64,000 nt of DNA, from contig NC_135761.1 in assembly GCF_052425735.1 (NCBI RefSeq), forward strand, positions 42,160,001 through 42,224,000, given 5' to 3'. Shown here piece by piece: positions 1,656 to 63,632 of the stretch (the stretch's first letter is position 1; each line of letters starts with the position of its first letter). Source of the stretch: Oculina patagonica. Its lineage: Eukaryota. Made by a program: the position numbers and the translations under genes. The notes below the pieces were generated by a model. The model ran no database searches and had not been told where the DNA came from. It saw nothing but the letters and a program-made list of their open reading frames with translations.

Positions 1656-1699
1656 CATTCGTTGAAAGGCTGCCACGATCACAGGAAAAAAATACATTT

Positions 1700-2260
1700 T
1701 CCAATATGGTAAATCATTGGAAAATTTGAGTTATAACCTTCCAACATTGGATAATCATTGGTAAATTGTATTGAACCAATAAAAGTCCAATAAGGTTCCA
1801 ACAAAGGGAAAAATGCTTTTTCCTCATGATGTGACAGTTGGAATATTATTGGAGTTTAATTGGAACAGAACACATTTGGTCTTCCAATGTTGGATAATAC
1901 CGTGAAAACATTGGAAGACATGTCTTCAGTTACCAAAGATTGCACAATGATATACCAAGCTATGCTATTGAACTGGTTATGATTGGAACTTCATTGTGGT
2001 ATTATTGGAATAAAATATTCACAATTTTCCAATGTTGGATTATACTGTGAAATTATTGGAAGACATATCTTCCGTCACCAAAGATTGCACAATGATATAC
2101 CAAGGTATATTTTGCTATACCATTGAGCTGGTTATGATTGGAATATCATTGTAGTATTATTGGAACAAAATGTTCACAAGTTTCCAATGTTGGATTATAC
2201 TGTTAAATTATTGGAAATTATTTCTTCAGTTACCAAAGATAGCACAATAATATACCAAGC
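1700..2260. repeat. Left subterminal repeat region of the CACTA element
   Basis: Many CCAAnnTTGG and ATTGGAA motifs, plus about three copies of a roughly 140-150 bp unit (ccaatgttgga..atac.gt.aaa.attggaa...taccaaagat.gcacaat.atataccaag). Confidence 0.8.
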
Positions 2261-2716
2261 TTTGAAGAGATAAAAGAGAATTCTTTGATTTTCCTTGTTC
2301 ACATGTAACTGCAGATCAGATCTGGATTTTATCAGAGGTCCCATAACAACAGCACAGTTTGCAGAAATATTGCATTACAGTTAAACGTGTACTAAGCGGA
2401 CTCTCAGGGAATGTTCTAGTGTTCGCGTAGTACAGGGTGACTGTCTGCTTAATTTAATGAAGCATGTCCACTTAATACAGGTTTCTGTTGTATTCTGCAA
2501 AAAGCCATAAGTAACTTACAGTTTCCATTTGATAGATTGATATCACAAAACTATTAACCAATGAAAATTAATTGATCACTTATTATTTAATTGTAGAAAC
2601 TGAACAAATAACACAACAGAATTAAATTAATGACAATCAGTGACTATTTCAGAGGTTAAAAATATAAACTGAAAAACCGCTCTACATGCATACAGGGGGT
2701 CATTTACAAAACATAT

Positions 2717-3397
2717 TCAACTGAATTTTTCTAAGAGAACTAGAACATCTGCCCAGCAGGAAGGCCATCTTAGGTTAATGTTGGCTTTGTTAAAAATATC
2801 CTTCCCCCAATGGAGAAGATCCTCAAAGATACTCTGGGAAAATCCTGCTTGGCCTTTTATTTCTACCAGCCGAAGCACAGTGTCATAAAGGAACTGCTCC
2901 AGGTCTTCCTCTCCTCCTTCATCTCGGTTGGAATCATTGTGTTCCTCACCATTTGAACTGTCATCACTGTTACATGCAGCATTGTCATCTGATGACAGAC
3001 TCATGGAACTTTCTTCATCACTAGGTATCTCATGATCAGACGTAGTAGATTCGTTTTCAAACTCATTTTCGTCACTTTCATAATGTCTTCCAGCCAATGC
3101 TGATGGTAAATCGCTGGGAGATTCGCAGAAAGAATATGATGCCTGAAATACAACATCACATGTATCCGATTTCTCTGATGAGGAGGTGGATGGAACGAGC
3201 AACTGGTTATCCAAAGTTTCCGTTCTAGCTCTATTTGCCCTTTGGGTATGCCTCCATGCCGTCATGGGATAGACAGCTTTGCCTTTACATAGAAGACATA
3301 AGCAGTGAACATGCGCCTTTCCCGACGACGAGATGTTCCGCGCTTCATCACTATCCAAACATCTACACAAGTTTGCTGGTTTTGTGGACGACGCCAT
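2717..3397 (-). pseudogene. N-terminal part of the CACTA transposase (Cys/His motif + acidic linker); catalytic domain absent
   Basis: MASSTKPA..HVHCLCLLCKGKAVYPMTAWRH, a long D/E/S tract, then a helical segment ending WPSCW. It lies inside the TIRs, and no DDE core is seen between 2260 and 2717. Confidence 0.6.
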
Positions 3398-3713
3398 ACA
3401 TTGCTTTGGCAACAACAAGGTCACAAGGATAACGAACGTTAACATAAATTAAGCGAAATTACCGGTAAGCCAAATCCTTCGAAGTGTTCAAACCAAAAAA
3501 GCATAATAACAACAGTTTGTCAGACTGTCAGCGGTAATTTATGCGGATCATGCGTGTTTCATGTACCCAGAGTCCTCCCAGGCCCTTTGACGCCTTTTCC
3601 CGCCGTTTCTTTCCTCGCTCTGCAAATCGAAAGGTGTTGATCGAACGGAAGGAAGAAGTATATTTTTCAATTGGAAAAGAGCTAGTAGAATTACATGTAA
3701 GAGTATCAAAAAG

Positions 3714-6700
3714 ATGTCTGAAAGAGCTGAAGAGGATATCAGCGCTGAACTGTCAGAAGGTAATGTATTTCAATCCATCGGCACCCGGAACGTGAAATTC
3801 AAGATTTCGCGCCATGGTCATTTTCTGTTTAGTTTTTATATTTCAAAGCTTGGTGTTTTTTTGTTTTACAAACTAAATTTTTCAAATTTGTTAAAGTTTT
3901 AATTTCTATTAGCCGGGTTAGCCGTTCCCTTCTTTTCTTTCAATGACTGTTTAGAATGTAGTCTTAGCAAGGATGTTCAAGGTTGGTCAACAGAAGATGT
4001 GCATTCCTGGCTGACAAAGGAAGGATTTCATGAGGAGGCAGTCGTGTTTAAAGGTTTGTATCCATTCTTTTAATCCTTTTCTTCCTTTTATGTACATGTA
4101 TGTACTAATTAAAAAGACTTCATGGATTTAACAGACATTCGTTTTTACGTTTAACTTATATCTTTCTTTATGCAAGCTGAAAAATATGTTCTCGGTGTGT
4201 TGCATACTGTAAATCCATCCCAGTCAGTTTTGCTTTCTAGACTCACCCTGTTCTTTTATTACCTTAACAGCTGAGAACATAACTGGAAAGTCACTTTATT
4301 GCCTAGAAAAAGCAGACTTGAAAGATATTGGAATTAACCCTATGGGCAAGAGATTGGAAATATTCGAAAAAATTAAAGAGCTCACATGTCTACAATCTGA
4401 AAAGAAAGCATCCAGCAAATCAGAAGGTAATTGTTATTTTTTTTGTAGAAGAAAAGAGAAAATGGCCTTTTAAGTTATTGTTTATAAATTTATGTTTCAG
4501 TCATCTGACAGCTTTATTTAATGCACCTTGAATTTGTTGAAGTCTTCGAGGCAAATACGGTTATTCCCCCCTAAAAACCTTACTTTATCATGCTATTTTT
4601 TGTGTGTGTTTGATTTCTTTTTCAGATTTTTAATAACCAATTTAGCCAGCCAATAGTTGCTGGTCATGTAGATCAAAGAAAAATCTAATGTTTATACTTA
4701 TCTTAAATTAGTTACTGGACAGGTGTGGAAAAAGAAAATAACTAAGGCAGACAGGTCAACTTGGAAACCAAATGAAAAAGCATGTTATCTGGAAAAGTAA
4801 GTCCTTTGAAAATTTCGTACCTTTGTGTCATAGTTGACATAATTTGTCCTCAGATTGCCAAACCTTGAATTTCAATTTATTTAAAGTTAGCTAATAACAG
4901 TAGCAACCGAGGGCTGTCATTAAGCTTTGAAGCAGCCAGCTACACAAGGAAGGTAAATGGTCAAAAAAATACTCAAGATAGCATGCCCTAGCTGTTGTCT
5001 TTTAGTCATTTTCAAACTTTGAGTAGCCAGCTATCTTCACGGCAGTTACCGTTCATAATAGTCGGTTGCCGGCTACTAATGACAGGTATGAGCGCAACAA
5101 AACAACAGCTACTGTTAACAATATTTTTATTCATTGGCAATTATAAAACTTATCAGTATTATCACTGAACTTGTCCATCAACAAAGAATTGCAGTAAGCA
5201 ATAATACATAGTTTGCACTTCATGCTTTACTACCTAGTTTTATTAAAGCAATCACAATCCTTTCTTTTTCTTTAGGATCTCTATTATTAACCAGGAAGCC
5301 AGACAACTTTGGCCAGGAAATTCAAAAATCCACATCAAAGGAGATGCAACTACCAGGCTGAAGATGGAAGAATTAATCACACGCATGGAGCCAATGTGCT
5401 CCATCCCAGAAATAGGATTTGGCAGAGGTGAGTTTTACAGTGTTAATGTCCAATCACACATTAGTGCAGCAGTCAGTTAAATGTTGTTGTTTTTATTGAT
5501 TGATTGATTGATTGACTAACTGACTGATACTGACTGACTGACTGACTGACTGACTGACTGATCGATCAATCAATTGATCTGTTGGGGAGGGGGGTCTCAA
5601 AAGCCAAAACATTTAAAGGGAAGAATTAAGCTAAACTGGAATTTCCCAGAGGGGTGGGGAGATAAAAGCAAAAAAATGAAAAACTCCATGGGGGGAGCTT
5701 GGATATTTTCTGGAACAACACAATGTGAAAAAGTGTGAAATGTATTAATTTAATATTGCATGTTCCTTTCAAACTAATAACAAGAAGAGGCTGTTGAACA
5801 AATTTTCAGTGTGATTGTGTGAAAGATAAGCCTGTTTTCGATTAATTACTTAAAACAAAAATGTGTCTTTCACAGATGCTATCAAGAGTCATTTACTGCA
5901 ATGGTTTCACGAAAAAAATAGGAAGATTGAGGATGGCTACGACTATGAGGTAATGTAACACTAACAAATTTATATTTACTGATAATAAAAAAGAGACACT
6001 TTTTTATTCACCTATACATTTGCAAAGCTCATTTTTATGCAATGCTCAATGAATCAGTTCTATGTTGTACAGTACAAATAAGCTCGAGTTCCAGAAATCC
6101 ATGAAAAATGAAGTGTTGTCAACTTTATGATTCAAGGGGATCCATCCCCCTCCATGAAAGAAGTGTCGGTCATGGTTCTCATTAAGTGCCAGCAGCAGAC
6201 TTTTTTGTGCCGACTCATAGATACATCCACCTTCTTGCTGTCTATTCAAAAACTTTAAATGAGAACCCTGACTTGTCCTTTAGCCCAAAACAGAATACAC
6301 TTGTATGTGCTTTGATTTATAGCCAATAATTATTGTTTGCATTTCCTAGGCCACTCACAAACCTGCAAAACGTGCGAAAAGATCATTTTCACCAAAAGGT
6401 TCAGATACAGACTCTACATTGTCACCTTACTCATCAAGCACAGGCAGCTTAAGTTCACCAACTGAAGGTTTGTCATAATATCCTATCGTTATTATTTAGT
6501 ATCTGCAGCCAAATTATGGTGCCTCGATGCCTTATGAGTGGTTCTGAAAATACAGATGTATAATATAATTACTAGTATTTCTGCTAGATTGTCGTTGACC
6601 ATATGTATTTTCAATTATTATTTTCTAGATGATGAAGAGGACAACTCTCCAACTCCAAGCAGTGACATTGATGATATTTCTGCTCATTCAGCTGAAGTTG

Positions 6701-7023
6701 TCGTGCTAAAAGCCTTTGATGCTCTTTCCATACATTTCCTAACCGTAAAGAAGCACTTTTATCCTCTGGGAAAGGTGCTAAAAGTTAAATGTAGGAGCAT
6801 TGGGAAGTACCAGTTGGTAGTTCCTCTAGCAAAGGCCCTTATCACTAAAGGCCATGTTGACATAGAAGGGGACGTCAATTATAAGAAACTTGAAAAAAGT
6901 CAAGTTAAGGTATTGACAGATATTAATTCTCTTATTTCTGATGAAACCAGGAATTCTCCTGTTTCAGATGTTGCTGACAATGACAGCCCCCCATGCAGCC
7001 AGGTGTCCAGTCAAATAATTTAG
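3714..7023 (+). CDS. 8-exon SAM-domain protein (374 aa), accessory gene of the CACTA element
   Basis: Exons 3714-3759, 3955-4053, 4271-4426, 4712-4796, 5276-5427, 5876-5949, 6350-6467 and 6629-7023. All introns are GT-AG with compatible phases and there is no internal stop (1125 nt). SAM signature WSTEDVHSWLTKEGF..F.AENITGKSLYCLEKADLKDIGINPMGKRLEIFEKIKEL. AATAAA near 7228. Confidence 0.85.
5495..5575. repeat. (ATTG)n/(ACTG)n microsatellite in intron 5 of the SAM gene
   Basis: Direct tetranucleotide repeats. Confidence 0.9.
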
Positions 7024-7382
7024 TTGATACAGTAGCAATATATTAGAAATAGCTTTATTTTTGGTACATATATATACATGTACAGCTATCATGTTGTTCA
7101 TGTCCGTTAATTTTTGGACAGTTTTGCTGTTTGTTGACATTATTACTGATAATTTCCACCCAAAAAAGCCAAGAGGTGACTGTAATTAGTACATAGAGCA
7201 ATCATGCTGTTCTGGTTATATGAATTGAATAAAAAGTTGTATTCATGTAAACTTCAGAGTTCTGTTATGATTGCCTGGTGTTATGATTACAATTGAAGGG
7301 TCAAGTTGAAAACTATGCTAAGTGGGCAAAGCGTGTATGCCCACTTTGCATAGTTTTTGACTTGACCCTTCAATTTCAATGC

Positions 7383-7912
7383 AATGTTGGAATATATTGT
7401 TATCCAATGTTGGAAACATATCATTCATTGTTGGAGAGTGATGTTATCCAATATTGGAGACATATTGTCCAATGCTGGAGAGTTTTATTTTCCAATATTG
7501 GAAACATTTTATCCAATGTTGGAGAGCTCAATTATCCAATATTGGAAACATACTGTCCAATGTTGGAATATATCATACTCCAATATTGGAAACATATTGT
7601 CCAATGTTGGAGAGCTAAATTATCCAATATTGGAAACATACTGTCCAATGTTGGAATATATCATACTCCAATATTGGAAACATTTTGTCCAATGTTGGAG
7701 TATATCATTCTCCAATATTGGAGATGACTTTACCAATGTTGGGAAATATGGTGGTCCAATATTGGAAACTTGTAATCCAATATTGGAATATCATATGTTA
7801 TTTACCAATATTGGAAGATATAACCATTTACCAATATTGGAATACCATTTGGGTTTACCAATGATGTACCAATGATATTACAGTAATTAACCAATTAACT
7901 TCCAATGTTGGA
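7383..7912. repeat. Right subterminal array of CCAAT(A/G)TTGG palindromes, 44-bp period
   Basis: Sites start at 7448, 7469, 7492, 7513, 7536, 7557, 7580, 7601, 7624, 7645, 7668, 7689, 7712, 7733, 7756 and 7777 (alternating 21/23 bp). Confidence 0.92.
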
Positions 7913-8159
7913 AAATGGATTTTTTTCCTGTGGATTGTTATTTGATCAGGATGCATTTGGGGTTACCACAGCATGCGGCAGATTTGTAAAACACATAGAA
8001 AACGAGCGGCCTTGTTTTAGCAATTTAGACCATAATTGACCACCCTCAGTGGATAAATGCGTGGGTGAGACTTCTATATACTGGGATCGCCGGATGGTTC
8101 TACATTCGGAATGTCATCTGGAAAAATGGAAGGAGAAAATAAAGAGGACCTGAACTGTA

Positions 8160-8600: not shown

Positions 8601-9100
8601 NNNNNNNNNNNNNNNNNNNNNNNNNNNNNNNNNNNNNNNNNNNNNNNNNNNNNNNNNNNNNNNNNNNNNNNNNNNNNNNNNNNNNNNNNNNNNNNNNNNN
8701 NNNNNNNNNNNNNNNNNNNNNNNNNNNNNNNNNNNNNNNNNNNNNNNNNNNNNNNNNNNNNNNNNNNNNNNNNNNNNNNNNNNNNNNNNNNNNNNNNNNN
8801 NNNNNNNNNNNNNNNNNNNNNNNNNNNNNNNNNNNNNNNNNNNNNNNNNNNNNNNNNNNNNNNNNNNNNNNNNNNNNNNNNNNNNNNNNNNNNNNNNNNN
8901 NNNNNNNNNNNNNNNNNNNNNNNNNNNNNNNNNNNNNNNNNNNNNNNNNNNNNNNNNNNNNNNNNNNNNNNNNNNNNNNNNNNNNNNNNNNNNNNNNNNN
9001 NNNNNNNNNNNNNNNNNNNNNNNNNNNNNNNNNNNNNNNNNNNNNNNNNNNNNNNNNNNNNNNNNNNNNNNNNNNNNNNNNNNNNNNNNNNNNNNNNNNN
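8601..9100. other. Assembly gap (500 N)
   Basis: Run of N. Confidence 1.
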
Positions 9101-9757: not shown

Positions 9758-9990
9758 ATGGTGAGACATTGCATAGCATATAGGTGTAATAACCGCAGCA
9801 ACAAGCCAGAACGTGCAAAATTATCGTGGCATTCATTACCCATAAATGATCGAAAACTACTGCAAACATGGCTATTGGCTATATGAAGAGGAAAACCCCT
9901 CTGCTCTGCAGCTAACATTTTTCGGAGGAATGCTTCAAGCGGACTGTGGGAGGAAAAGTGTTATTGAAACCTTAATCCGTACCTGTTTTT
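9758..9990 (+). pseudogene. THAP zinc-finger domain relic (N-terminus of a P-element-like transposase)
   Basis: MVRHCIAYRCNNRS..SWHSLPINDRKLLQTWLLAI*R..LCS.HFSEECF..LKP*SVP follows the THAP C2CH/AVP pattern, with stops and frameshifts. Confidence 0.75.
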
Positions 9991-11069
9991 GGCCAAAAGC
10001 AAAGCCAAAACAGAAAGCGCCTGTAAACCGTTCAGACGTGAGTACAACAACAAAGGCAAGACAAGTAACAGATAAAGTTAAAGTGAAGTTTCAGTCTCAC
10101 CCTGTCACTAACTTAAGTAAAGCTGCGGATAATATTCCATATCAAGAATCCATTTGGCCTTGGGATAAGAATAGCAATGGCAATATGTGCAGAATAATGG
10201 ACAAACTTAACTGCCAAGTGTTAATTGGCCGCTAGTTGCCTTGTGACTTTCTTTCTTGTGTCGAGCTTGATTGTACCTTGCCTTGTGTTGGCCCTAGTTA
10301 TGTATTTGCTTGTGTGTCAAGCGCAAATTAGTCCTCGGTTGCCGTGCCTCTGCATAAGCTAAAACTTTCGCTGGTGTGTTTAGCTCTTATTTATTATGCC
10401 GTGTTGCGGCTCAAGGTTTTTTAATAGAGCAGCTTTCTGACATCGCCAGAGAAAAAGGCCACAATCATGCTAGTCGCTTCGCTTTGTCAAACCAGGCCAT
10501 TTGGGTTCCTCAACTTTCAAACAGATGCTCCTAAAACTAGTGGGTTCTGATGAAGAGGTGGCAATTGCTAAAGAAATCCAGAGGAGCGAAAAAAGTAATG
10601 CAGTGTTTTGGGCCTCATAAAATGCTTTCCCTTGGGTCAAAGATGTTTTTTTTTAATAATTTAAAAAAATCTTTAAAAAAATTTATATTTATACAGCAAT
10701 TCTTTACATCTATTTTCAGTTTTTACCCACCCGTTCTTTATTTTTTGTTCTCATGCCTTTATCCCAGTACAGAGTTGTTTTCGTTTAGATGCCTACTTAC
10801 CACACATTTTCGTTTTCTTTTTGGGTTATGTTTTTGCACCATAGCGAAAACACTTTCCCCTCCACTCTCCCAACTGTAATTAGAAGGGTAATCTCAATTA
10901 CACCCAATAATCAGTTTACAACAGATTCCTGGTCCGGCTCAGTTAGGGAGTTCCCTAACACCCTAACACCCTCCTTACAGGAGCACATTCCTGCGTTTGT
11001 CCTAGCTGTTTCACCTTTGTACAATGGACAGGACCATGCACTCCTGAGACTGGATTAATCAGGTTATAT

Positions 11070-45034: not shown

Positions 45035-45913
45035 ATGGATAGAACAAAAAGGGAAAGAGAAAGCAGTAATTCAAGCGATAGAGACAGTGAAACAGCTTCC
45101 CCGGTTGATAAGAAGAAAAAGGACGAGAATTTCGAGACAGAGAGCGAAGAAGTGTTTACACGTGGAGCCTCCAATATGGCGTTGTCGGACGACATAGGCG
45201 TGAACATAAAACATATTCTTCAGAAGCTAGAGAAACTCGACAGTATGGAAACTATGTTGAACAAGGCATTAAGCAAAGTAGCAGCAGTGGAAACCCATGT
45301 CAATGAACTGGCGCTCAAAGTTGAAGCGTTGAACTCTAAGAGCCGTGTTGCTGATAAATCTGTTGAAGAGGTGACTGCGAGTGTTGATTTCCTCTCGAAG
45401 ATGTGCGAAGATGCTACACATAGGCAAAAGGAAGATAGCGAGAAACATAAAGCCGAGTTGGCCCGCTTGTCCAAACAAATGTCATATTTGGAGGCTTACT
45501 CAAGAAGAGAAAACCTTCTCTTCGAGGGAATCCATGAAGCCCCTAATGAAGATGGACGCGAAGACACTGCCGCCGTCTTACGCTTATTCATGGAAATTGT
45601 TTTGAATGTTGAGAAGCCCGACACGATTGAATTTCAGAGGGTCCACCGCCTTGGAAAGAAAACCTCGAAAGGACCGCGAGTAATAATTGCCAGATTTCTC
45701 CGGTATAGCGACAGGCAACCAATTGCGAGCCTGGGAAAATATCTTCGTGATAAAGAAATTTATATCTACCCCGATCTTCCAAAGTCAATCCAAGAAGCGA
45801 GACGACGTCAAATGTCAAAGCTGAAAGAAGCAAGAAAGGCGGGACAATCGGCCTACTTCAGTCAAAGTAAACAGGATATGCTTTACATCGATGGAAAGTT
45901 CGTTCCTGAGTAA
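45035..45913 (+). CDS. L1-type ORF1 protein (coiled coil + RRM + CTD), intact
   Basis: Heptad region, then YSRRENLLFEGI, IEFQRVHRLG, PRVIIARFLRYSDR, DLP and LYIDG. Confidence 0.88.
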   Translation: MDRTKRERESSNSSDRDSETASPVDKKKKDENFETESEEVFTRGASNMALSDDIGVNIKHILQKLEKLDSMETMLNKALSKVAAVETHVNELALKVEALNSKSRVADKSVEEVTASVDFLSKMCEDATHRQKEDSEKHKAELARLSKQMSYLEAYSRRENLLFEGIHEAPNEDGREDTAAVLRLFMEIVLNVEKPDTIEFQRVHRLGKKTSKGPRVIIARFLRYSDRQPIASLGKYLRDKEIYIYPDLPKSIQEARRRQMSKLKEARKAGQSAYFSQSKQDMLYIDGKFVPE

Positions 45914-46312
45914 CTCCCGTACTTTAAGGTTTTTCTCTCTAATCAAATACAAGAACATTTGATGAAGCTTGGACCTTCTCTTCAGGTATTCAACTGTCGT
46001 TTAATACTGCTTTTAGTTACACCAATATTGAATTCAGTGATGCGATTGGAATGGGCTGAAGAGCTTCATGGACGAATATATTATTAGTTTAATCATTCCG
46101 TATTTGTGTGTATGTTTATTTTATTTTAAAATATGGTTTACGTTTTGTTTTTGTTACCTTTATTTCAGGCTAACTTATGTTGCGCATATTATGTTAATTA
46201 TATTTTTTTTATGGTGCGATGTTACATAACCTTTTCTTTTGTGTTATGCGGTAATTAGGGTGTTGGTATTCGAGGTGCTAGGCTAGTTCTATTGACAAAG
46301 AAAACATAGAAA

Positions 46313-48881
46313 ATGACAACAAATTTTAAAATGGTTTCTTTAAATGTTCGGGGTTTGCGTTCCTCCGATAAGCGAAAAGCGATACTTTTATGGATAACAA
46401 AACAAAAAGCTGATGTTGCTTTCCTGCAGGAAACATATAGCATAATTGAGGATGAACAATTTTGGAGAACACAATGGAAAGGCAAGATGTTGTTCTCGCA
46501 CGGCTCAAATCACAGCAAAGGCACCATAATTCTAGTGAAACAAAACTTAGAATTCGAACAAAAAACAGTTTTTTGTGACCCTAGCGGTCGCTTCATATTT
46601 CTAGAAGCCGTTGTGCAGGGGAACCTTTTTTTATTTGTAAATATTTATGCTCCCAACAAAGTTCATGAACAAGAAGTGTTTTTCAAAAAGATCAGAAGCA
46701 AAATTGAAAGCTATGATTTCGATCCTAATAGAAAAGTTATAATGGGAGGTGACTTCAATATTTTTTTTTTTTTTTTTTTTTTTTATTCATTTCAATAGAA
46801 AAAAAATACACACAGAATAACGTAAAAATAAACAAATACAATAATTGAAAAAAAAGAAAAAAAACTTACAAGTATAATATAGTTATTAGCACACTAGATC
46901 TTAAATTAGAAATTACAATACATCAATACATCATCAATATTAATACACGCTATTACTCATCCTACAGTACACTCTTATTTCAAATAATTCGCTTTAACTA
47001 CAATTAAATTTTTCGAAGATGTATTTAAATTTTACATTGGCTAAGAATTCATTTAATGACAGCTTTCCATTCAATAATTTCTGATTGTATACATAATATT
47101 TTGCATATAAAAAGGTGAAGTTTAACTTTCTAATGATATCTATTTCTTTGTTTATGTTATCCTTGTCCTTACCAAAAATTAATTCAGTTGGAGAGAGGGT
47201 AAGAGAGGTGGCATTTTCTTTATTAAACCATTTTATAACCTCTGCGAAGAATAATTGACTCCAATTACAGTTGTAGAAAGTGTGAATTATGGAGTCATTT
47301 AAATCACAGTATGGACACTTTGTGTCCTCTGCCACACCAAAGAGAAATAATTCCTTTTTGGTGACTACTATTCTGTGTAAGAGTTTGAAATAAAATTCCC
47401 TAAGCTTATTATCTCTACATACGTTTCTTACGCGACTAAAAGAAGGTTGTAGAGATGCTTGACCAATTTGCAAGTCTCTTTCCCATTTGGAGGTAGCCTT
47501 CGGTTCAATTTGTTCTTTATTTACGAGGAGCCGATAGTAATCTTTGTTTTTCATTTTGGTTAAGTTGATGGAGGTCTCTGGGGAGAGGTGAAACATAGTG
47601 CTAGACAACAAACCTGCTCTGTCTACAGGGTATGACATCGCACGTTCTACAAGATGCCTGGAGGTGACTTCAATATCTTTTTCGATGAGAATTTGGATTG
47701 CTTCGGTGGCAATCGAAAAATCAAAGATAGGAGCGTTAATGAAATTAAAGATATGATGTCAGAAAATGATTTAATAGATATATGGAGAATCCGTCATCCA
47801 GATGATAAACGCTTCACATGGAGACAAAAAACGCCGCTTATTCAACGTAGATTAGATTTCTGGCTTGTAAGCGATTCGTGCCAAGAAGAAGTTCTTGCTA
47901 CAGACGTCAAAATTAAATGGTTCAATGCCTGAAACAAGTGATGAAATTTTAAACGAAATAATTTGGAATAATAAACACATCTGTATAAATAATAAATCAT
48001 GTTTTATTAGCGAACTGATGGATATAGGTATAAACAAAATTGGTGACATGATTAAACTGGATGGGACATGTAAATTTTTGACATGGAATGATTTGCATAA
48101 CAAAGGTCTTAAAATGAAAAATTTTCTTTTGTGGCAAGGTCTAATCGATGCAATACCAGTTAAATGGAAACAAGCTATTAAGTCCATGACAGGTCCTTAT
48201 ATCTTGAACTCGGATTCAAATGAATCCACTTTAACTATTAATTCAGTTAAAGTACCCACATCAAAAGTAAATTCCAAAAAACTGTATGGGAGTCTGGTCT
48301 CAAGGGTTTGTGAAAAACCAACAGCACAAAGGAAATTTGATGAAATGTTCCCTGACCCTAAGCGTGATTGGAGTAAAATATACAGCTTGCCTTTCCAGGT
48401 TGCGTTAGATGCGCACACAAGAGAATTTTAATACAAAGTGGTTAATAGAATCTTATTTACAAATTCTAAATTGTGTAAGTTTGGCTTGGTGGAGTCGCCT
48501 TTGTGCACCTTTTGTGGAGAGGAGGAAGAAACCCCTGAACATTTGTTGGCATTATGTTCTTATTCTAGTGCCTTTTGGAATGAAAATTTCAACTGGCTGC
48601 AACAGTGTGTCACTGGAATTAGTGTTGATTTGTCAGAAGTAGTCAATGTTATACTTGGTTTGCCTGATCTCGAGGAACATTTTATGGCTGTAAACCACAT
48701 AGTTCTTGTGGCAAAACAAACAATTGTACTTTGTAGGAAGAGATCTACTAATCCCAGTTTGAATGTCTTCCATGCTCTACTAAGGAAAGCTATTAAAATA
48801 GAAGAATTTATTGCTAAGCAGAAAAATAAATTGCACCTCCATTTAGTTAAATGGGAAAATTTTTTAGATAAACTTATTTAA
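46313..48881 (+). pseudogene. Tx1 no. 1 ORF2: APE endonuclease joined directly to the C-terminal domain (RT missing)
   Basis: SLNVRGL, FLQETY, NIYAPN, GGDFN, DIWR and RLDFWL. At about 47907 it jumps to IIWNN and zf-RVT. Confidence 0.88.
46762..47659 (-). mobile_element. 5'-truncated Tx1/L1-clade LINE nested antisense in LINE no. 1
   Basis: 17-bp TSD ggaggtgacttcaatat at 46745-46761 and 47660-47676. Poly-T at the left end. ORF 46994..47638 has KLREFYFKLLHRI..CPYC..DSIIHTFYNC (zf-RVT). Confidence 0.93.
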
Positions 48882-49314
48882 AGTAAATGTATGCAACGTC
48901 TGCCATTTTTCGTTCTTTTTTTGAATTTATTTTTTTTTTGTTTTTTTTTTGTTTTTTTTGTTTTTGTTATTTTTGTTATTTTTTTGTTATTTATTTATTT
49001 ATTTATTTTTTTTAGCATAACTGTTTCCAGAGTAATTGTAGTAGTATTTCAAAATTAAAAATTGTAACTGTAGTGCACCCGTAACTATGTATTTTTTCAA
49101 AGTGTAATTGTACTTCAAACTTCTGTATCTGTATTTATATCTGTGCTTGTAACTGTATATTTAATTTAATAAAGTATTAAATTATAAAAAAAAATAATAA
49201 TAATCCGTCCAAATTCAATGGAGGACAAAAAAATGAAATCAAGTCACATGGCATTGTGTTCTTTCTCTCGTTTTTTATTGAGCAGAGCCTTGTTAACTAC
49301 AGTCGTACATGATA

Positions 49315-49490
49315 CAGTGGAACCCCGATATAACGATATGCCAAGGGGGCAGTAAAATTATATCGTTATATCGAGGAATCGTTATATCGGGGTTCCGTCC
49401 CATACATTTTACTATTGCCGGGACATAACATATTCATCGTTATATCGGGAATATCGTTATATCGAAGATCGTTATATCGGGGTTCCACTG
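49315..49490. mobile_element. Tc1/mariner (pogo/Tigger-like) MITE, 176 bp
   Basis: TA|cagtggaaccccgatataacga ... tcgttatatcggggttccactg|TA, with internal cgttatatcg repeats. Confidence 0.92.
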
Positions 49491-50353
49491 TATTGAAACA
49501 CAGATCTACATTCAAAACACAATATTTTTATACTTAATCATTGCCCTTCACAGCTGTAGTTGACATCAGCGATGAAGAGGATGATACTGAGCCTCACTTA
49601 CAACCTCGTCACTCAACGCCAATGGCCAGTAGAAGTCGAGCTTCCGATTGTGTGACAGCAACTCTGTATGGTAAGGGATCTTGTTTTAGGAAGGCAGACT
49701 TTACTAATAAGGCAAAACAATTTTTTTCCTGAATATTTTTTTCTGAAGTCTATACCCTCTATAGCTTTGTCATGTTTTGACCAAATTATTTGAAATTTTG
49801 CCACCAAAAGTATTCTGTAGAGATCTGCACTTTAAAGACTACAATGTTACATTGTTTGCCTCAATCTAGATTCTGTAAAAAAAGTGGCCATGGTGAGTAT
49901 GACTAAAACTGCAGCGTCTTGGGAGCTAGATGCTGTACAAGGTGAGATTTGGATATGTACATCTAAGTAGTATATGATGTATTTGTTTGACAAGGTACAG
50001 ACACCTGTGACGAAATCTTTTATTGTTGAAATGTATATTTTTACACTTGCATATAGCTCACTTTAACTATATACAAAAGAGAAACACAACAAAATGGTAT
50101 CAACATTTAAGGTGGCTCGAACCAGCATTTTTCTTGCAATTCCTTTCAACTTTGAACCCCTCATACATGTGCCTAAAGTGCATAAAGTCAACTTAATGAT
50201 ATATCCTCTAGATATGATGGATTACACATACACTGAACTGCATTTATGTTATAAACTTTTTGGGCTGGAGAGAGGAGACTGGGCAAGATGGCGGCAGGGT
50301 AAGACGTGCACATGGTGCTCCTTCAAAAGTGATGCCGTTGGAGGTGTAATTTC

Positions 50354-51253
50354 ATGTCCGCAAAAAGAAAAGGTAGACCAACTTTGTTGTCTGACAGTGC
50401 AGCCTCGCCGGAGGAAAAAAGATCCTGTCGTGAAAGCAGTGTAAGCGAAATAAGATGCGAAATGAGCGCCAACGATCCTGAGACGCTCTCGGCAGTCGAA
50501 TTACTTTCAAAGAAAATGGACACCGTCCTTTCAAAGCTTCAAAAGCTAGATAATATTGAAAGCAGACTCGATAACCTGTTCATGGCTGTATCTAACATAG
50601 AGGATGCCGTTGCCAATCTTGACAAGGAGGTTCATAACCTGAAGGAGAAGATGAAAAACACCAACAAGACAGTGAAGGAGCTTGAGGAAAGTGTTGACTT
50701 TAACGATGAAGAAATTGCCAATTTGAAACGCGATGTTAAAGCGGCGCAGAAGAAAGCGGACGATTTAGGCAAAGAACTTCTTTACCAAGAACACTTCAGT
50801 AGAAGAGAAAACCTAATGTTTATTGGAATCGAAGAACATAATACTACGGAACAAGACGAACAAGGCACTCGTCACGAGGTGGAGAATACAAAGGAGATTA
50901 TTTACAAGTTCATGGAAGACGAGCTTCAGATCAGCAACCCACGCGACAAGATTGAATTTCAAAGAATTCATCGAGTTGGAAAACCTAAAGACGACGGTCC
51001 TCGTCCAGTAATCGCAAGATTTTTGCGCTATTCTGACCGCGAATTAGTCCTCCGCCAAGCCAGAAAAACATTAAAGGATAAAGATTGCAACGTATTTGAG
51101 GACATTCCGAAAGAATTGTACGAACTAAGAAAATCCCAAAATAAGAAATTTAAGGATGCTAAGGCTAGAGGATGCAGTGTATATTTCAGCAAGAGATTCC
51201 CTGATAAACTCTATGTAAATGGAAAGTTTATTCCGAGTAATGCACCATTGTAA
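50354..51253 (+). CDS. L1-type ORF1 protein, intact
   Basis: Coiled coil, then FSRRENLMFIGI, IEFQRIHRVG, PRPVIARFLRYSDRE, EDIP and LYVNG. Confidence 0.9.
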   Translation: MSAKRKGRPTLLSDSAASPEEKRSCRESSVSEIRCEMSANDPETLSAVELLSKKMDTVLSKLQKLDNIESRLDNLFMAVSNIEDAVANLDKEVHNLKEKMKNTNKTVKELEESVDFNDEEIANLKRDVKAAQKKADDLGKELLYQEHFSRRENLMFIGIEEHNTTEQDEQGTRHEVENTKEIIYKFMEDELQISNPRDKIEFQRIHRVGKPKDDGPRPVIARFLRYSDRELVLRQARKTLKDKDCNVFEDIPKELYELRKSQNKKFKDAKARGCSVYFSKRFPDKLYVNGKFIPSNAPL

Positions 51254-51649
51254 TAATTTATTTGCTTTTCTTTCTGTTTTCGGCTCTTTATTGTACAACT
51301 TGGCACACTATATGCTAATCACCTTTTCCCGCTTTTAAACGCATAAATTTTTCTATATCACAAAAACTTAATTAATACGTAGTTAACATCACAAAGAAGG
51401 AGCACAACACAACATCAGGAATGTTATTCACAGTAGGTGTAGGAACGCCCATACAATTCGCTTTGGGGCAGTCGGTAAGTAGGATAAATTCAGTCTTCTT
51501 TGGGTGTTTGTGTTGTAATTATGCATGTTGCTACATTCTCAGCTTAATTCTCAGTTTCATTTGTTTTGCTACGCTATTAAATAATCATTAGCTAAGCCTA
51601 TTCAGGATAAAACCATAGTCGCACAATAGGAGAAGTTAATTTTAAGATA

Positions 51650-54600
51650 ATGTCACTCAATGCTCGAGGGATTCGAGACCTCCAGAAACGCAAATCAATT
51701 TTTACGTGGATAGAAAAACAGAAAAGTGACATAACGTTTCTTCAAGAAACCTATAGTACACCAGAAATCCTTAGTGATTGGAAATTCCAATGGCGTGGAG
51801 AAATGATCTATAGTCACGGTTCGAATCATAGCAGTGGAGTGCTCGTCCTCATTAACGAACAGCTACAGTTCGAATTAAAAAATGCCGTAATAGACGATAA
51901 CGGCCGTTACATTTTATTAGAGATGACCATCCAAGACTCTCCATTTCTTTTGTTAAATTTATATGCGCCTACAAAACTCAACGAACAAGTAGCCTTTTTC
52001 GAAGAAATCCTTTCTATTATTCAAACCACCAGCTTTGACACAGAATGTAGAATTATCATTGGTGGAGATTTCAATGTTCATCTAGATGCTGCTCTTGATA
52101 ACTCTGGAGGAAAAATTGAAACGAAATCTACTGTTAAAAATATTCATGATATAATGCTTGAGTATAACCTAATTGATATATGGTGAGTTCATAATCCAGA
52201 TAAAAAGCAGTTTACTTGGAGGCAAAAAACGCCGATTATTCAGCGACGCATTGACTTTTGGCTCATAAGTGATGAACTACAAGACGACATTCAAAAAGCA
52301 GACATCGTCCCAGCTATCAGAACCGACCATGCAGCAATCAGCTTGTCCCTCAATAGCCTAAAAGACCAACCATTTGGACCATCTTATTGGAAATTTAATT
52401 CAAGCCTTCTTGATGACGATACTTACATACAGCTTATTAACTCTGAATATCCAAATTGGATTATGGAATTTTCTGAAGTTAATGACCCAAGAGTTTTATG
52501 GGATTTAATTAAATACAGGATCAGACAAATTACTCTCCAATATAGCAAAACTATCGCCAAAAATCGAAAAGCACGGTTACAGAGAGCGGAAGAAACCCTA
52601 AAACAATGCGAGGAAATTTACAACAACAATCCATCAGAAGATAATATTATAAAGTTGGACGAAGCAAGGAGTGTGTATGAAGCATTGTATGATTATATTA
52701 TTCAAGGTAAAATAATCAGATCAAGAGTGAACTGGTATGAACAAGGGAAAAAAATTCAAAATACTTTTTAAATCTTGAAACCAACAAAACCGGAAAAACA
52801 TCGATTCGTCGGCTATTTAATTCAGATGGAAAAATAATTTTAAATTCAAAATTCATTATGAAAGAACTTGAGGATTATTACACATCTCTCTACAGAAACC
52901 AGGATTCAAGCGATGGTGACCGATTTATTCCAGATTTCACCAACAGCGTTCACATTCCTAAACTAAGCGATGATCAGAAAAATCTTTGTGAAGGAATTTT
53001 GTCAAACACTGAGTGTTTTAACGCACTATCTAAATTCCCAAATGGAAAAAAACCTGGAAATGACGGCTTAACACCAGAATTTTACAAAAAGTTCTGGAAT
53101 CTTCTTGGCCAACTTATGACCGATTCCTTGAATTTTTCTTACCTACACGGCGAATTGTCTAATTCACAAAAACAAGCAATAATAAGACTTATTGAGAAGA
53201 AAGGAAAGGATAGACGTTATATAAAAAACTGGCGGCCTATCTCTTTATTAAATGTTGACACTAAAATAGCTTCGAAAGCATTAGCATTGCGATTAGAAAA
53301 AGTATTGCCTTTTATTATAAACGGGGACCAATATGCTTATGTCAAAGGCAGAACTATTTTCGATGCGGTCCGGCCAATCGAAGACATCATGGAATACACG
53401 AGAATTAACCAGATACCTGGGTTAATGGTGGCAATTGACTTTGAAAAAGCATTTGATTCTATAAGCTGGAATTTTTTGCTAAAAGCATTAAAATCGTTCA
53501 ATCTTGGTGAATCTTTTGTTAAATGGATCTCTGTTTTTTATTCTAATATATCCAGTTGTGTCACAAACAATGGTTTTTCGACGCCATTGTTCAGTGTTGA
53601 AAGAGGTGTTAGACAAGGAGACCCGTTGTCACCGTATCTGTTCATCATAGTGTTGGAACTACTATTAATTAAAATAAGAAGTGATCCTCGTATTAAAGGA
53701 ATTAAAATTGGTAATATAGAGGTAAAACTTGCAGCCTTTGCTGATGACTTGACAACATTTGTACACAACAAAGCCTCCATAGAACATTTGTTCAGTACAC
53801 TGGGACTATTCGAAAAATGTTCAGGCTTGAAATTAAACAAAGACAAAACGGAGGCCTACTGGCTCGGGAGTAGCCATAATTGTAAACAAAACTTGGGTAT
53901 AGAAACTGTTAATGAACCAATGAAGATTCTGGGAATTTATTTTACGTATAATTCTCGCCTAAAACATGAACTTAATTTTGAAGCAATACTTAAATCTTTA
54001 AAGAAAACCTTGAATGGTTGGCAATGGCGAAATCTAACTGTGTTCGGCAAGATTCAAATCATTAAAACATTCGCAATGCCAAAACTCATGTACCGTGCTT
54101 CCGTATTAAATCTAGACAAAGATTTTTTGAAAAAGGTTAATTCTGTGATGTTTAATTTTTTATGGAACGGAAAAGATAAAATCAAACGCTTAGCTCTGAT
54201 CAGCGATTATAAAGATGGCGGTCTGAAAATGCCTCACGTGGAGTCTGCAATCAAAACTCAGAGAATCATTTGCCTAAAGAAGTATACTGAGAACTATCAT
54301 AGCCCTTGGAAAGGATTCTCAAAGATCACGGCGAGAAATTCCTTCTTCATTGTAATTATAATGGTGCTGATCTACCTAAACACCTTCCTAAATTTTATCC
54401 CGAGTGTTTTGAGACCTGGGCGACAGTCAATACTAAAGAAATGTCCTCCCGAGACGTCATCATGGATCAAATACTATGGAACAATCAATTTCTGCGTATT
54501 GGGGGCAAACCTCAATTTTGCAAAAAATCATATATGGCTGGAATTGTAAAGATAAAAGATATCCTTCTCCCGAACGGCAAATTAAAAACTTGGAATTTCT

Positions 54601-55400
54601 TTTGAGAAAAAGGGCTGAATTTTAACAATTATTTCTTAATCCTTGGTCTGTCAAAAGCACTTCCAGACGCATGGAGAGTCTTGATAAACTCGAAAAATCC
54701 ACAACCCCCTGATGCGCAAGAGCAGAGCACCACCACAATTTTGGATTTAACTCAGTTTGTGCTCAATTGTAATAATGAAGAAATTAAGCTCAGTGAACTC
54801 ACGAGCAAAAGACTGTACTGGATTCTGATAGGGAACATACACGTCCATCCTACTGCAAGATTAAAATACAACTCTTTATTTGATGATCAAAATCTTGACT
54901 GGAATCAAATTTATTTAACGCCACAAAAAGTGACTTTAGACATTAAAACAAGAATGTTTCAATTTAAAATTCTTAATCGTATAATATATACTAACAAATT
55001 GTTGAATAAAATGAGGCTAATAGATACCTCGTTATGTACGTTTTGTGGAGAGTACGAAGAATCTCTCAAGCATTTGTTTTTACACTGCAAATTTACCATA
55101 GATTTCTGGACGCATACTACTAACTGGTTAAATAAATTAAATATTACCATTTCTAGGCTAAATGACAGCGAAATTCTGCTAGGTATTACAAAAGAAAGTC
55201 CTCATTGGACTCTTCTCAATCATATTCTCATTGCTGGTAAGCAAGTAATCCACGCTAATCGGCTCAGGAAAACAAAACCACTCCTACCTCAGTTAATAGC
55301 TAAACTTAAATTTATTGAACACAATGAATATTGTATCGCTAAGAAAAGGGACAGGCTTAAATTTCACCTACAGAAATGGGAAATACTTAAGTTTTCTTGA
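51650..55400 (+). pseudogene. Tx1 no. 2 ORF2 (APE + RT + zf-RVT) with a few lesions
   Basis: APE motifs; PGNDG, NWRPISLLN, DFEKAFD, GVRQGDPLSP, FADD, CTFC..HLFLHC. Stops at about 52184 and 54603, frameshifts at about 52750 and 54310. Confidence 0.95.
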
Positions 55401-62281: not shown

Positions 62282-62944
62282 TTATTTCGAAATGTCGGTA
62301 GCGCTTTCGAGAAGTTTTTTTTCCAATCTTTTGCGTTCTTCTCTCTTGATTTCTTCCCGAATTTTTCCGATGTCTGGCTGGAGTGAATTTCTTTGTTTTT
62401 GTGCAAAGTTTGAGCGTAAAGTATCTTTAAGTTGTCGATATTTCTTCATTTCTCGTGTGATCAGTTGAAACTCTTTGTCAGAAACAAGATTATCATTCAG
62501 AGCTTGTGAGACAGAGCTGTTTATCGAGTCATGTTTTGCAACAGCCAGAGCGAGGATTCTTGAGTGCTTATTAACTTTACGTTCAAGCTTTTTGTTGATA
62601 ACTGACAGGCCAGTGGAAGCTGCGCCAGATATACCTGCTACTGCTGCAACAGGAACGCCGATAACAATTCCAACACCAGTAAGTGAAGTCGCAACAGCTC
62701 CAGAAGACAGAGCTGCCGTCACGGCGCCAAGACAGACCACGGAATAGTGAATAACTTTCCGGACTTTTTTATATTTTTTTAACACAAGCCTGTAATGCTC
62801 AGCTTCAGCGGATATTTCTTTTTCAATTTTACTTATTTCAGTCAGCCGAAAATTCTCGGCATTTGTTGGGAGGCTTGGATAAAGTTGTGTTTCTTCGCGA
62901 TCACCATAAGCAGGGGCACTCGGGAGAACATTAGCAGATGACAT
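62282..62944 (-). CDS. Polinton/adintovirus-type membrane protein (so-called gasderminX-like), 220 aa
   Basis: LYPSL..FRLTEISKIEKEI..E...Y....KKYKK, a Gly/Ala-rich double hydrophobic segment (SLTGVGIVIGVPVAAVAG), then KVNKH..I..LA..K...I...VSQAL.D..VSDKEF.LI..E..KY..LK. ATG at 62944. Confidence 0.75.
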   Translation of the reverse strand: MSSANVLPSAPAYGDREETQLYPSLPTNAENFRLTEISKIEKEISAEAEHYRLVLKKYKKVRKVIHYSVVCLGAVTAALSSGAVATSLTGVGIVIGVPVAAVAGISGAASTGLSVINKKLERKVNKHSRILALAVAKHDSINSSVSQALNDNLVSDKEFQLITREMKKYRQLKDTLRSNFAQKQRNSLQPDIGKIREEIKREERKRLEKKLLESATDISK

Positions 62945-62966
62945 GGTCGTATACAATAAAAAAAAA

Positions 62967-63632
62967 TTAATTTAATTCTAATTCAAAATGCAGCGGAGCT
63001 CCAACAAAGTCAAACTTACTGCCAGTTTTGTCTTTGACGGTCAATGTGACACTGTTCACACTCTGAACAGCGTTGGTTCGACGTGAATTATTGATAAAAT
63101 TTTGAGGGTAATGAACCAAATCATAAGGTTTCCCGGTTATTGGTACACAAGCGAGAATGTCACTTGGCTTTCCATTATACAAGTTATTTTCTTTGGAAAG
63201 TAAATCGCAGTGAATGTAATAAAAGTCTGGCTTAGTAAAATCTTCAATTCTTGCGTTAGCAGCATCAACAATTGTGTTCTTAAAAAGTTTAGAAAGATTT
63301 TTATCAAAAGAAAAGCTTTCAATATTTTTTGTTTTTGTTATTGAAAAGCCTCTTTTTAAATCATCCCTTTTTACTGTTAGCTTTTGTTGATCTTTGAACT
63401 TATTAGCCAGGTAAGTTGTAATTTCATCAAAATTGTAGTTGCCTGGAAAAAAATCAGCAACATTGTTGCTCACATTGTTTTGTTTAATGCTAATGGAGCC
63501 AATTTCTTCCAGATTACGCCAGCTGTTTTGTAACGAGCATGACAGCAGGCTGATAAACCTTGGTTTTTCAATTGGCTGGTCAAAGTAAACAGATTTCCTG
63601 TTGGAACTCGCGTCGATTGTGAGCACAACCAT
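62967..63632 (-). CDS. Minor capsid (penton-like, single jelly-roll) protein of a Polinton/adintovirus
   Basis: Beta-rich. N-terminal YFDQPI...ISLLSCSL.NSW.N, PGNY, YYIHCDLL...LYNGKPSDILA, and C-terminal VNSVTLTVKDKTGSKFDFVGAPLHFELEL. Confidence 0.75.
   Translation of the reverse strand: MVVLTIDASSNRKSVYFDQPIEKPRFISLLSCSLQNSWRNLEEIGSISIKQNNVSNNVADFFPGNYNFDEITTYLANKFKDQQKLTVKRDDLKRGFSITKTKNIESFSFDKNLSKLFKNTIVDAANARIEDFTKPDFYYIHCDLLSKENNLYNGKPSDILACVPITGKPYDLVHYPQNFINNSRRTNAVQSVNSVTLTVKDKTGSKFDFVGAPLHFELELN

Follow-up and report, generated by a model that had tools for sequence, protein, structure and literature searches.

In the textbook anatomy of CACTA transposons, a second protein encoded by the element reads its subterminal repeats, as TnpA does in En/Spm. 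Binding of maize TnpA to the subterminal repeats has been described (PMC2613891), and maize En/Spm has CAC-type termini, a 3-bp target site duplication (TSD), direct and inverted repeats in an asymmetric subterminal arrangement, a second gene of several exons besides the transposase gene, and deletion derivatives in which both ends persist (PMC2613891, PMC8978399), all of which, as far as the available parts of these reports go, it shares with the coral element described here. According to the accessible portions of a preprint (10.64898/2026.08.24.746577), the main text of which, in that form, does not contain the terms 'sterile', 'cnidaria' or 'Nematostella', TnpA-like proteins seem to occur in flowering plants only, and animal Spm elements typically have their DNA-binding domain as a fusion with the transposase. 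Two further systems are relevant from what is available of their descriptions: the SAM domain of LEAFY favours 19-bp sites 1 bp apart, which corresponds to a 20-bp pitch (PMC4844672), and the family-specific short motifs of VANC from VANDAL elements build up through the formation of tandem repeats and differ from one related element to another (PMC5735166).

The window analysed here is a stretch of 64,000 nt from the coral Oculina patagonica (NC_135761.1, positions 42,160,001 to 42,224,000), in which an initial annotation had noticed an array of palindromes and a gene for a 374-aa SAM protein. Both do lie, as it had stated, in one element, a transposon of 6,253 bp (1680-7932) with CACAG ends and a 3-bp TSD, GAT (left copy 1677..1679, right copy 7933-7935). 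The terminal inverted repeat (TIR; left 1680..1712, plus strand; right 7900..7932, minus strand) consists of a perfect 14 bp, CACAGGAAAAAAAT, at both ends, and extends to 33 bp at 88% identity. The palindrome motif had been placed in the TIR; the perfect 14 bp are without it, and one copy is found 22-31 bp from each end, within the imperfect extension. Subterminal direct and inverted repeats are found at both ends, and the left subterminal region (1693..2261, plus strand) contains palindromes, CCAA/TTGG half-sites in 11- and 22-bp steps and a 155-bp tandem unit, in agreement with the earlier remark that the motif recurs at the left end. Half-sites of the same orientation 11 bp apart occur 20 times at left ends, against 2.0 expected. 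On the basis of its termini, TSD and transposase the element belongs to CACTA/EnSpm, and the array is its right subterminal repeat block. The pairing of array and accessory protein matches the textbook En/Spm system of TnpA and subterminal repeats, a likeness on which the initial annotation had not remarked.

Four copies of this family (family A) are present in the source genome (G000), with 99.5-99.8% identity, identical right ends and TSDs of their own (GAT in the window, GAG, ATT and TTC). CACAG termini are found in every relative with intact ends, and the complete relatives in families B, D, E, I and J have the TSDs ATT, ACT, TAT, TAT and AAT, respectively. An empty-site allele, in which 1676 is joined to 7933, was present in four of eight public runs, and in contigs of the eight runs both termini also occur with new flanks, and additional internal deletions are seen. 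Near-identical copies, individual TSDs, the empty-site allele and the new flanks together indicate that family A has been recently mobile and is insertion-polymorphic, which makes it a candidate active coral transposon. Many members (families A, C, E, G, H, J and K) are clustered at 29.3-46.7 Mb on contig C4 of the source genome; matches to the TIR pattern at C4:4.46M and C4:15.8M looked like chance and were rejected. The right-end array of a family-C copy on contig C1485 runs straight into left-end-like sequence with no CACAG terminus, which suggests a tandem or fused junction. To the left of the element, the window contains a fragment of a Harbinger/ISL2EU-type transposase (85-621; DDE_Tnp_4 E=7e-24, HTH_Tnp_4), and an assembly gap of Ns (8601-9099) lies about 670 bp to its right and leaves the element untouched. 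Further away, at 19473-23227, 45035-55400 and 62282-63632, are what we take by eye from the ORFs to be a DIRS-like retroelement (presumably with reverse transcriptase, RNase H and a tyrosine-recombinase-like ORF), two L1/Tx1-like LINEs and small ORFs of Polinton/adintovirus type.

The transposase gene of the window copy is reduced to a 5' remnant of EnSpm (Transposase_21-like) type (2717..3445, minus strand), from which the catalytic core has been deleted, the junction at 2725/2726 linking the remnant to the 3' flank of that gene. Each of the four family-A copies has a different left-arm deletion by which the transposase core is gone and the accessory gene left intact, and the window copy and the copy on contig C5 each have sequence that is missing from the other, so at least two of the deletions arose independently from a longer parent. 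No intact family-A transposase or parent was found in the source genome among the 40 of 955 candidates that were scored, and the 3' part of the family-A transposase is found there in the C5 copy only. Family B (10.8 kb, G000:C7:2115496-2126271) has the full set of transposase exons. Transposase exons of families B, C and E align along a sponge protein (P0158), for which the nearest Atlas clusters are Transposase_21 (score 0.96) and the direct Pfam match is weak (E=0.014, below the cut-off); Pfam gave no Transposase_21 match for the window remnant (N-terminus, single exons) or for single exons of the family-B transposase. Repeated loss of the transposase core by different deletions, with the accessory gene and both ends spared, was seen in the family-A copies, in family J and in runs X1, X3 and X12, the runs being a biased sample in that they had been picked by the accessory gene, and either selection or a hotspot of deletion may account for it. 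The C5 copy has, within its transposase remnant (L014:~6090-6580), a high-copy palindromic repeat of ~480 bp, with dozens of matches of 82-94% in the source genome.

The accessory gene (3714..7023, plus strand) is divergent from the transposase gene and encodes 374 aa in eight exons (3714-3759, 3955-4053, 4271-4426, 4712-4796, 5276-5427, 5876-5949, 6350-6467 and 6629-7023). Its product has exactly the sequence of a protein that NCBI annotates for Oculina patagonica, and named relatives come from Porites, Acropora, Montipora, Desmophyllum, Exaiptasia and Paramuricea (corals, anemones and an octocoral). The intergenic region (3446..3713) is a putative bidirectional promoter, with a CpG o/e of 1.15 over 3400-3714, and AATAAA at 7228..7233 (plus strand), upstream of the array, is the likely polyadenylation signal of the accessory gene. 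GT..AG spliced joints were found for all seven introns in two runs, for six in two more and for four in one; the other three runs have the introns covered but no such joint listed. The gene is spliced and expressed, as judged from the spliced joints, none of the runs being recorded as RNA. Intron 5 contains (~5580-5732) a high-copy short MITE-like repeat after a TGAC microsatellite, with many loose contig ends at 5590 and 5720-5732.

An AlphaFold model of the protein has three confident domains and disordered linkers (pLDDT 81.5, pTM 0.43): SAM (aa 24-88), a basic (+4) tri-helical middle domain (aa ~105-205) and a basic (+7) C-terminal domain of three helices plus strands (aa ~255-345), the last two joined by a disordered acidic linker of ~50 aa. 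The original recognition of a SAM protein was correct (Pfam SAM_2 E=2e-11, SAM_1 E=2e-8), and the modelled N-terminal domain has the canonical five-helix SAM fold, with structural matches at Z 11-13 to the SAMs of CNK/Hyphen, Scm-Sfmbt, SARM1, DGK, PHC3 and SAMD1 (Z up to 13.2, and Z 13.1 with an rmsd of 0.9 A over 73 residues). Pfam gave no match outside SAM in the 374-aa protein, and none to plant TnpA families. For the middle domain no match in sequence or fold was significant. The fold search with it gave a best Z of 6.5, to tri-helical folds, and Z 4.6-5.2 for homeodomain and BEN rows, Bsg25A (Z 5.1, 72 aligned, rmsd 2.8) and BEND6 (Z 4.9) being tied with homeodomain and FF-domain; these matches may reflect a common helical arrangement only. 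Assignment of the middle domain to BEN by profile was rejected (hhalign probability 0.3% against 14 coral BEN domains), and no Pfam BEN match was found among 87 family members. The ESM Atlas was uninformative for aa 95-345 (best score 0.75), Foldseek with a SAM-less model gave no match at E<=0.001 in the PDB and viral models, and no significant match came from searching PDB sequences by profile. On the model, the middle domain is possibly a sequence-specific DNA-binding fold that has yet to be described; for the C-terminal domain we have an impression only, of a winged-helix or HeH/SAP likeness. Comparison of family A with its relatives gave pS 0.62-1.16, which is saturated, and pN 0.05-0.47, with pN/pS (uncorrected proportions) of 0.34-0.41 for SAM and ~0.05-0.58 over all three domains, values which point to purifying selection on the domains of the accessory protein. 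Family B has a decayed second middle-domain exon near position 9960-10130 of the element, between the accessory stop codon and the array, and a C-terminal stretch of a mis-joined annotation (P0153) resembles, by eye, a distant middle domain, which suggests a wider protein family.

The array proved to be as originally described and somewhat longer. Sixteen successive palindromic sites, one of them CCAATGCTGG, run from 7448 to 7777-7786, and the 15 gaps between them (8x21 and 7x23 bp) alternate strictly; a probe sequence for putative binding to these sites is CCAATATTGG. The alternation extends upstream via sites at 7381, 7404 and 7425, the last with two mismatches, giving 19 CCAAnnTTGG sites in register and an array body with a 44-bp unit at 7381..7786 (plus strand). 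Beyond the site at 7777-7786 the gaps are 28, 26 and 71 bp, and the sites concerned, at 7805, 7831 and 7902, make up a terminal ruler (7805..7911, plus strand) at -128, -102 and -31 from the end; CCAA half-sites lie between 7831 and 7902, those at 7858 and 7869 being 11 bp apart. An inverted repeat with 43-bp arms (88%, 9-nt loop; 7286..7380) between the polyadenylation signal and the array occurs only in the four family-A copies. The whole window has 53 strand-matches to the motif, compared with 10.6 +/- 4.0 in shuffles, none of 100 of which reached 53, and a two-site pattern gave 73 matches in the source genome against 0 for a reversed control, all within this element family among the matches listed.

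How such an array is built and kept can be addressed within it. The claim that spacers vary while sites hold is borne out, since over eight units in a fixed 44-bp register the cores have 3/128 mismatches to the consensus and the spacers 50/192 (Fisher p=1.3e-9, the units being non-independent). Tandem Repeats Finder reports the array as a tandem repeat of period 44/88 bp, two 44-bp units 88 bp apart are identical in sequence, and exactly 44 bp of the array is missing in one public run; unit slippage, named earlier as the simple alternative, does occur and also builds the array, but cannot be its sole cause, since sites are kept against spacer drift both within the array and across deeply diverged relatives. 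The array is the same in all four family-A copies, and as these are young this identity is uninformative on constraint.

Conservation was examined in families A-D of the source genome and in those metagenome loci, 17 of 34, that are members of the family, the other 17 having been dropped as unrelated because they lacked accessory homology, family-type spacing and a CACAG end at the array. Families B and C were found by right-end DNA similarity and again by transposase, and only the TIR pattern led to family D. There are 8 gaps of 21 bp in each of families A, B and C and 4 in family D, and at least two in 12/12 representative arrays, of which 8/12 are biased towards 21 by a metagenome search pattern that demanded one such gap; the 23-bp gap occurs at least twice in 3/12. 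The second gap is 23 bp in the A type, 28 bp in the B type and 26/30 bp in the C/D type, and wobble of 20-25 bp is seen in A-type relatives from other contigs. Relatives with saturated synonymous sites retain the motif, the 21-bp pair, the 11-bp half-site steps and the -102 site. In 16/16 intact ends (~11 distinct) the distance from the terminus to the start of a palindrome is exactly 102 bp, composed of 31+71 or 32+70 with the terminal site also kept in 15/16, and just 17-40 of the 60 letters beside the -102 site are shared among ends; in loci L075 and L082, sites persist amid heterogeneous spacers. The expectation that spacing would be kept across copies and species while spacers drift thus holds for the 21-bp gap and the -102 site, but not for the 23-bp gap. 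From these comparisons we infer that selection keeps the palindrome cores and the 21-bp gap, and the conserved unit appears to be the half-site, either single in one-turn steps or in palindromes paired two turns apart, together with a fixed ruler at the tip. The spacing classes follow the protein tree, an agreement that is expected from shared descent and is no evidence of co-evolution.

We propose that the array, as the right subterminal block of a recently mobile CACTA/EnSpm element, probably provides binding sites for the element's own SAM accessory protein, which would be a counterpart of maize TnpA. The basic tri-helical middle domain would read the CCAA(T) half-site, with two subunits per palindrome, and neighbours one turn (11-bp half-site steps) or two turns (21-bp palindrome pairs) apart would be coupled, by analogy with LEAFY probably through SAM-SAM contacts between neighbouring dimers. 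Such contacts would probably also couple the two ends of the element. Successive pairs would need no common phase, so that the array would depend on how densely its sites are placed and would not form a rigid rail, and the fixed sites at the tip could place the complex beside TIR-bound transposase and so promote synapsis of the ends. The same binding may control the expression or methylation state of the element. Unit slippage would supply new sites, from which selection would retain cores and the 21-bp gap.

A rather unlikely alternative, although the one that fares best, is that the array is the binding platform of the transposase itself and that the SAM protein has some other job, as a protein partner or as an anti-silencing factor without sequence specificity. 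The usual fusion of the Spm DNA-binding domain to the transposase in animals, as reported in the accessible part of the preprint (10.64898/2026.08.24.746577), is in its favour, and the fixed -31/-102 ruler would suit a transpososome footprint. The motif differs by clade, being CCAAnnTTGG in families A-D, CCATnATGG in E and K, and CCCA/TGGG in I and J, and complete elements of families E (13.1 kb), I (12.9 kb) and J (5.6 kb; C4:32.94M, a transposase-deleted copy that retains the accessory gene) have the layout of family A. The middle domains of the motif classes form separate clades, which would favour the accessory protein, but the transposase diverges in parallel; with three classes in all and both proteins changing in step, this match between motif and clade does not tell which of the two is the binder. 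A SAM exon went undetected in families E, K, H and M, and the SAM matches in I and J are weak (iE 0.07-0.14). Family E nevertheless has a regular array, which would suit the transposase as binder. The gaps of that array (23/23/44-48 bp), the lack of the 11-bp step in family E and the absence of a long regular array in families I and J also speak against the reading proposed above, whereas half-sites of the same orientation 11 bp apart in family I (9 against 1.1 expected) speak for it. The stretches covered of loci H, M and G showed no recognisable array or right end, with K represented by its left end only. Against a transposase platform stand the two basic helical domains of the accessory protein, which appear to be under purifying selection, the presence of its middle domain in every family examined, and the plant precedent, in which, from the part of the report available, it is the accessory protein that binds the subterminal repeats (PMC2613891).

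The initial annotation had suggested a head-to-tail SAM polymer that covers the array from end to end, each site taken by one DNA-binding domain and all sites on one helical face, which we now regard as distinctly improbable. The predicted SAM fold is canonical and close to those of polymer-forming SAMs, a G-K/R-R motif is conserved where the last SAM helix begins, and the mean pitch is 22 bp in A-type arrays of several contigs, all of which would suit a polymer. The geometric argument stands in so far as the 21-bp gap, which is 2.0 helical turns, recurs in families A-D, but the 44-bp unit is 4.19 turns and so drifts by 69 degrees with each repeat. Families B, C and D have retained SAM and have a second gap of 28 or 26/30 bp, and where this gap lies between 26 and 30 bp (2.5-2.9 turns) successive pairs are 171-309 degrees out of phase, so that one continuous face is not required. 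With a second gap of 23, 26-30 or 28 bp, a continuous in-phase landing strip is not supported, and the linkers of the model are predicted to be flexible, for which reason SAM would not impose phase.

It is very improbable that the sites recruit a host factor, such as a BEN-domain repressor or insulator of an Insensitive-like motif, or serve, in read-through transcripts, as hairpins at the RNA level. According to the available part of the report (PMC4281564), TCCAATTGGA palindromes are bound by Insv and Bsg25A of Drosophila. The half-site of TCCAATTGGA is that of the array, with two fewer central bases, and the source genome encodes BEN domains (17 matches); a single host factor, however, would not explain a motif that differs between element clades in one genome. 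Spliced contigs do extend into the array in two runs, where unitigs can mix DNA and RNA, but sites are present at the left end too, which is away from the accessory transcript, and the polyadenylation signal precedes the array. Least probable of all, and already largely refuted, is a neutral minisatellite in which one two-palindrome 44-bp unit expanded by slippage and hitch-hiked with the element, since the period of 44/88, the identical units and the exact 44-bp loss that speak for it are outweighed by cores far better kept than spacers, by the persistence of sites in L075 and L082, by a -102 site in every intact end despite its divergent surroundings and by the recurrence of the same half-sites at the left end.

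If binding by the accessory protein is accepted, it is tempting to speculate further. Anthozoan EnSpm elements might, independently of plants, have evolved a LEAFY-like self-regulator out of a captured SAM and an undescribed DNA-binding fold, the specificity of which shifted by clade (CCAA, CCAT, CCCA), and which would oligomerise on helically spaced pairs to activate and synapse its own ends, with transposase-deleted copies spreading as its expressed suppliers; we hold this extended scenario to be possible, and put it forward tentatively. A single genome with three natural motif-protein classes would be a compact test system, and the 11-, 21- and 102-bp geometry leads to sharp predictions on how SAM coupling reads site spacing.

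The individual parts of such a system have parallels elsewhere, which are drawn here from the accessible portions of the respective reports. LEAFY likewise has SAM joined to a DNA-binding domain, in its case a dimeric HTH that acts on semi-palindromes, and its clustered sites have a pitch near two turns (20 bp, compared with 21 bp here) (PMC4844672). SAM is also joined to a DNA-binding domain in SAMD1, ETV6 and Yan, as in the coral protein; these three and LEAFY differ in being host transcription factors, and the likeness is one of SAM fold. VANDAL VANC resembles the coral element in the build-up of motifs by tandem repeats and their change between relatives, but VANDAL is Mutator-like, its motifs are non-palindromic, of the same orientation and internal non-coding, and anti-silencing has been shown there (PMC5735166). 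Red-algal Plavaka PAG3 is an accessory gene of the EnSpm lineage beside tandem inverted repeats that are proposed binding sites, and differs in its ParB-like and 2OG oxygenase domains, with SAM not described, and in its host lineage (10.1101/2025.02.11.637652). For cnidarians, or animals generally, we found no separate SAM-bearing EnSpm accessory gene in the literature searched, Repbase (962 Spm proteins in the preprint supplements) lying outside the scope of this search. In Arabidopsis TnpA-Spm1/Spm3 and KAKUSEI the binding domain consists of two tri-helical units ~45 aa apart (10.64898/2026.08.24.746577), and the coral middle domain, ~50-aa linker and C-terminal domain resemble this two-unit layout in the predicted model. 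Compared with maize En/Spm, the coral element ends in CACAG, resides in a cnidarian host and has true palindromes in fixed geometry, and its second gene is separate, divergently transcribed and SAM-bearing, with no Pfam match to plant TnpA families. An expressed and conserved SAM-based counterpart of TnpA, shared by corals, sea anemones and an octocoral, would, if true, extend the logic of the 'controlling element' to animals.
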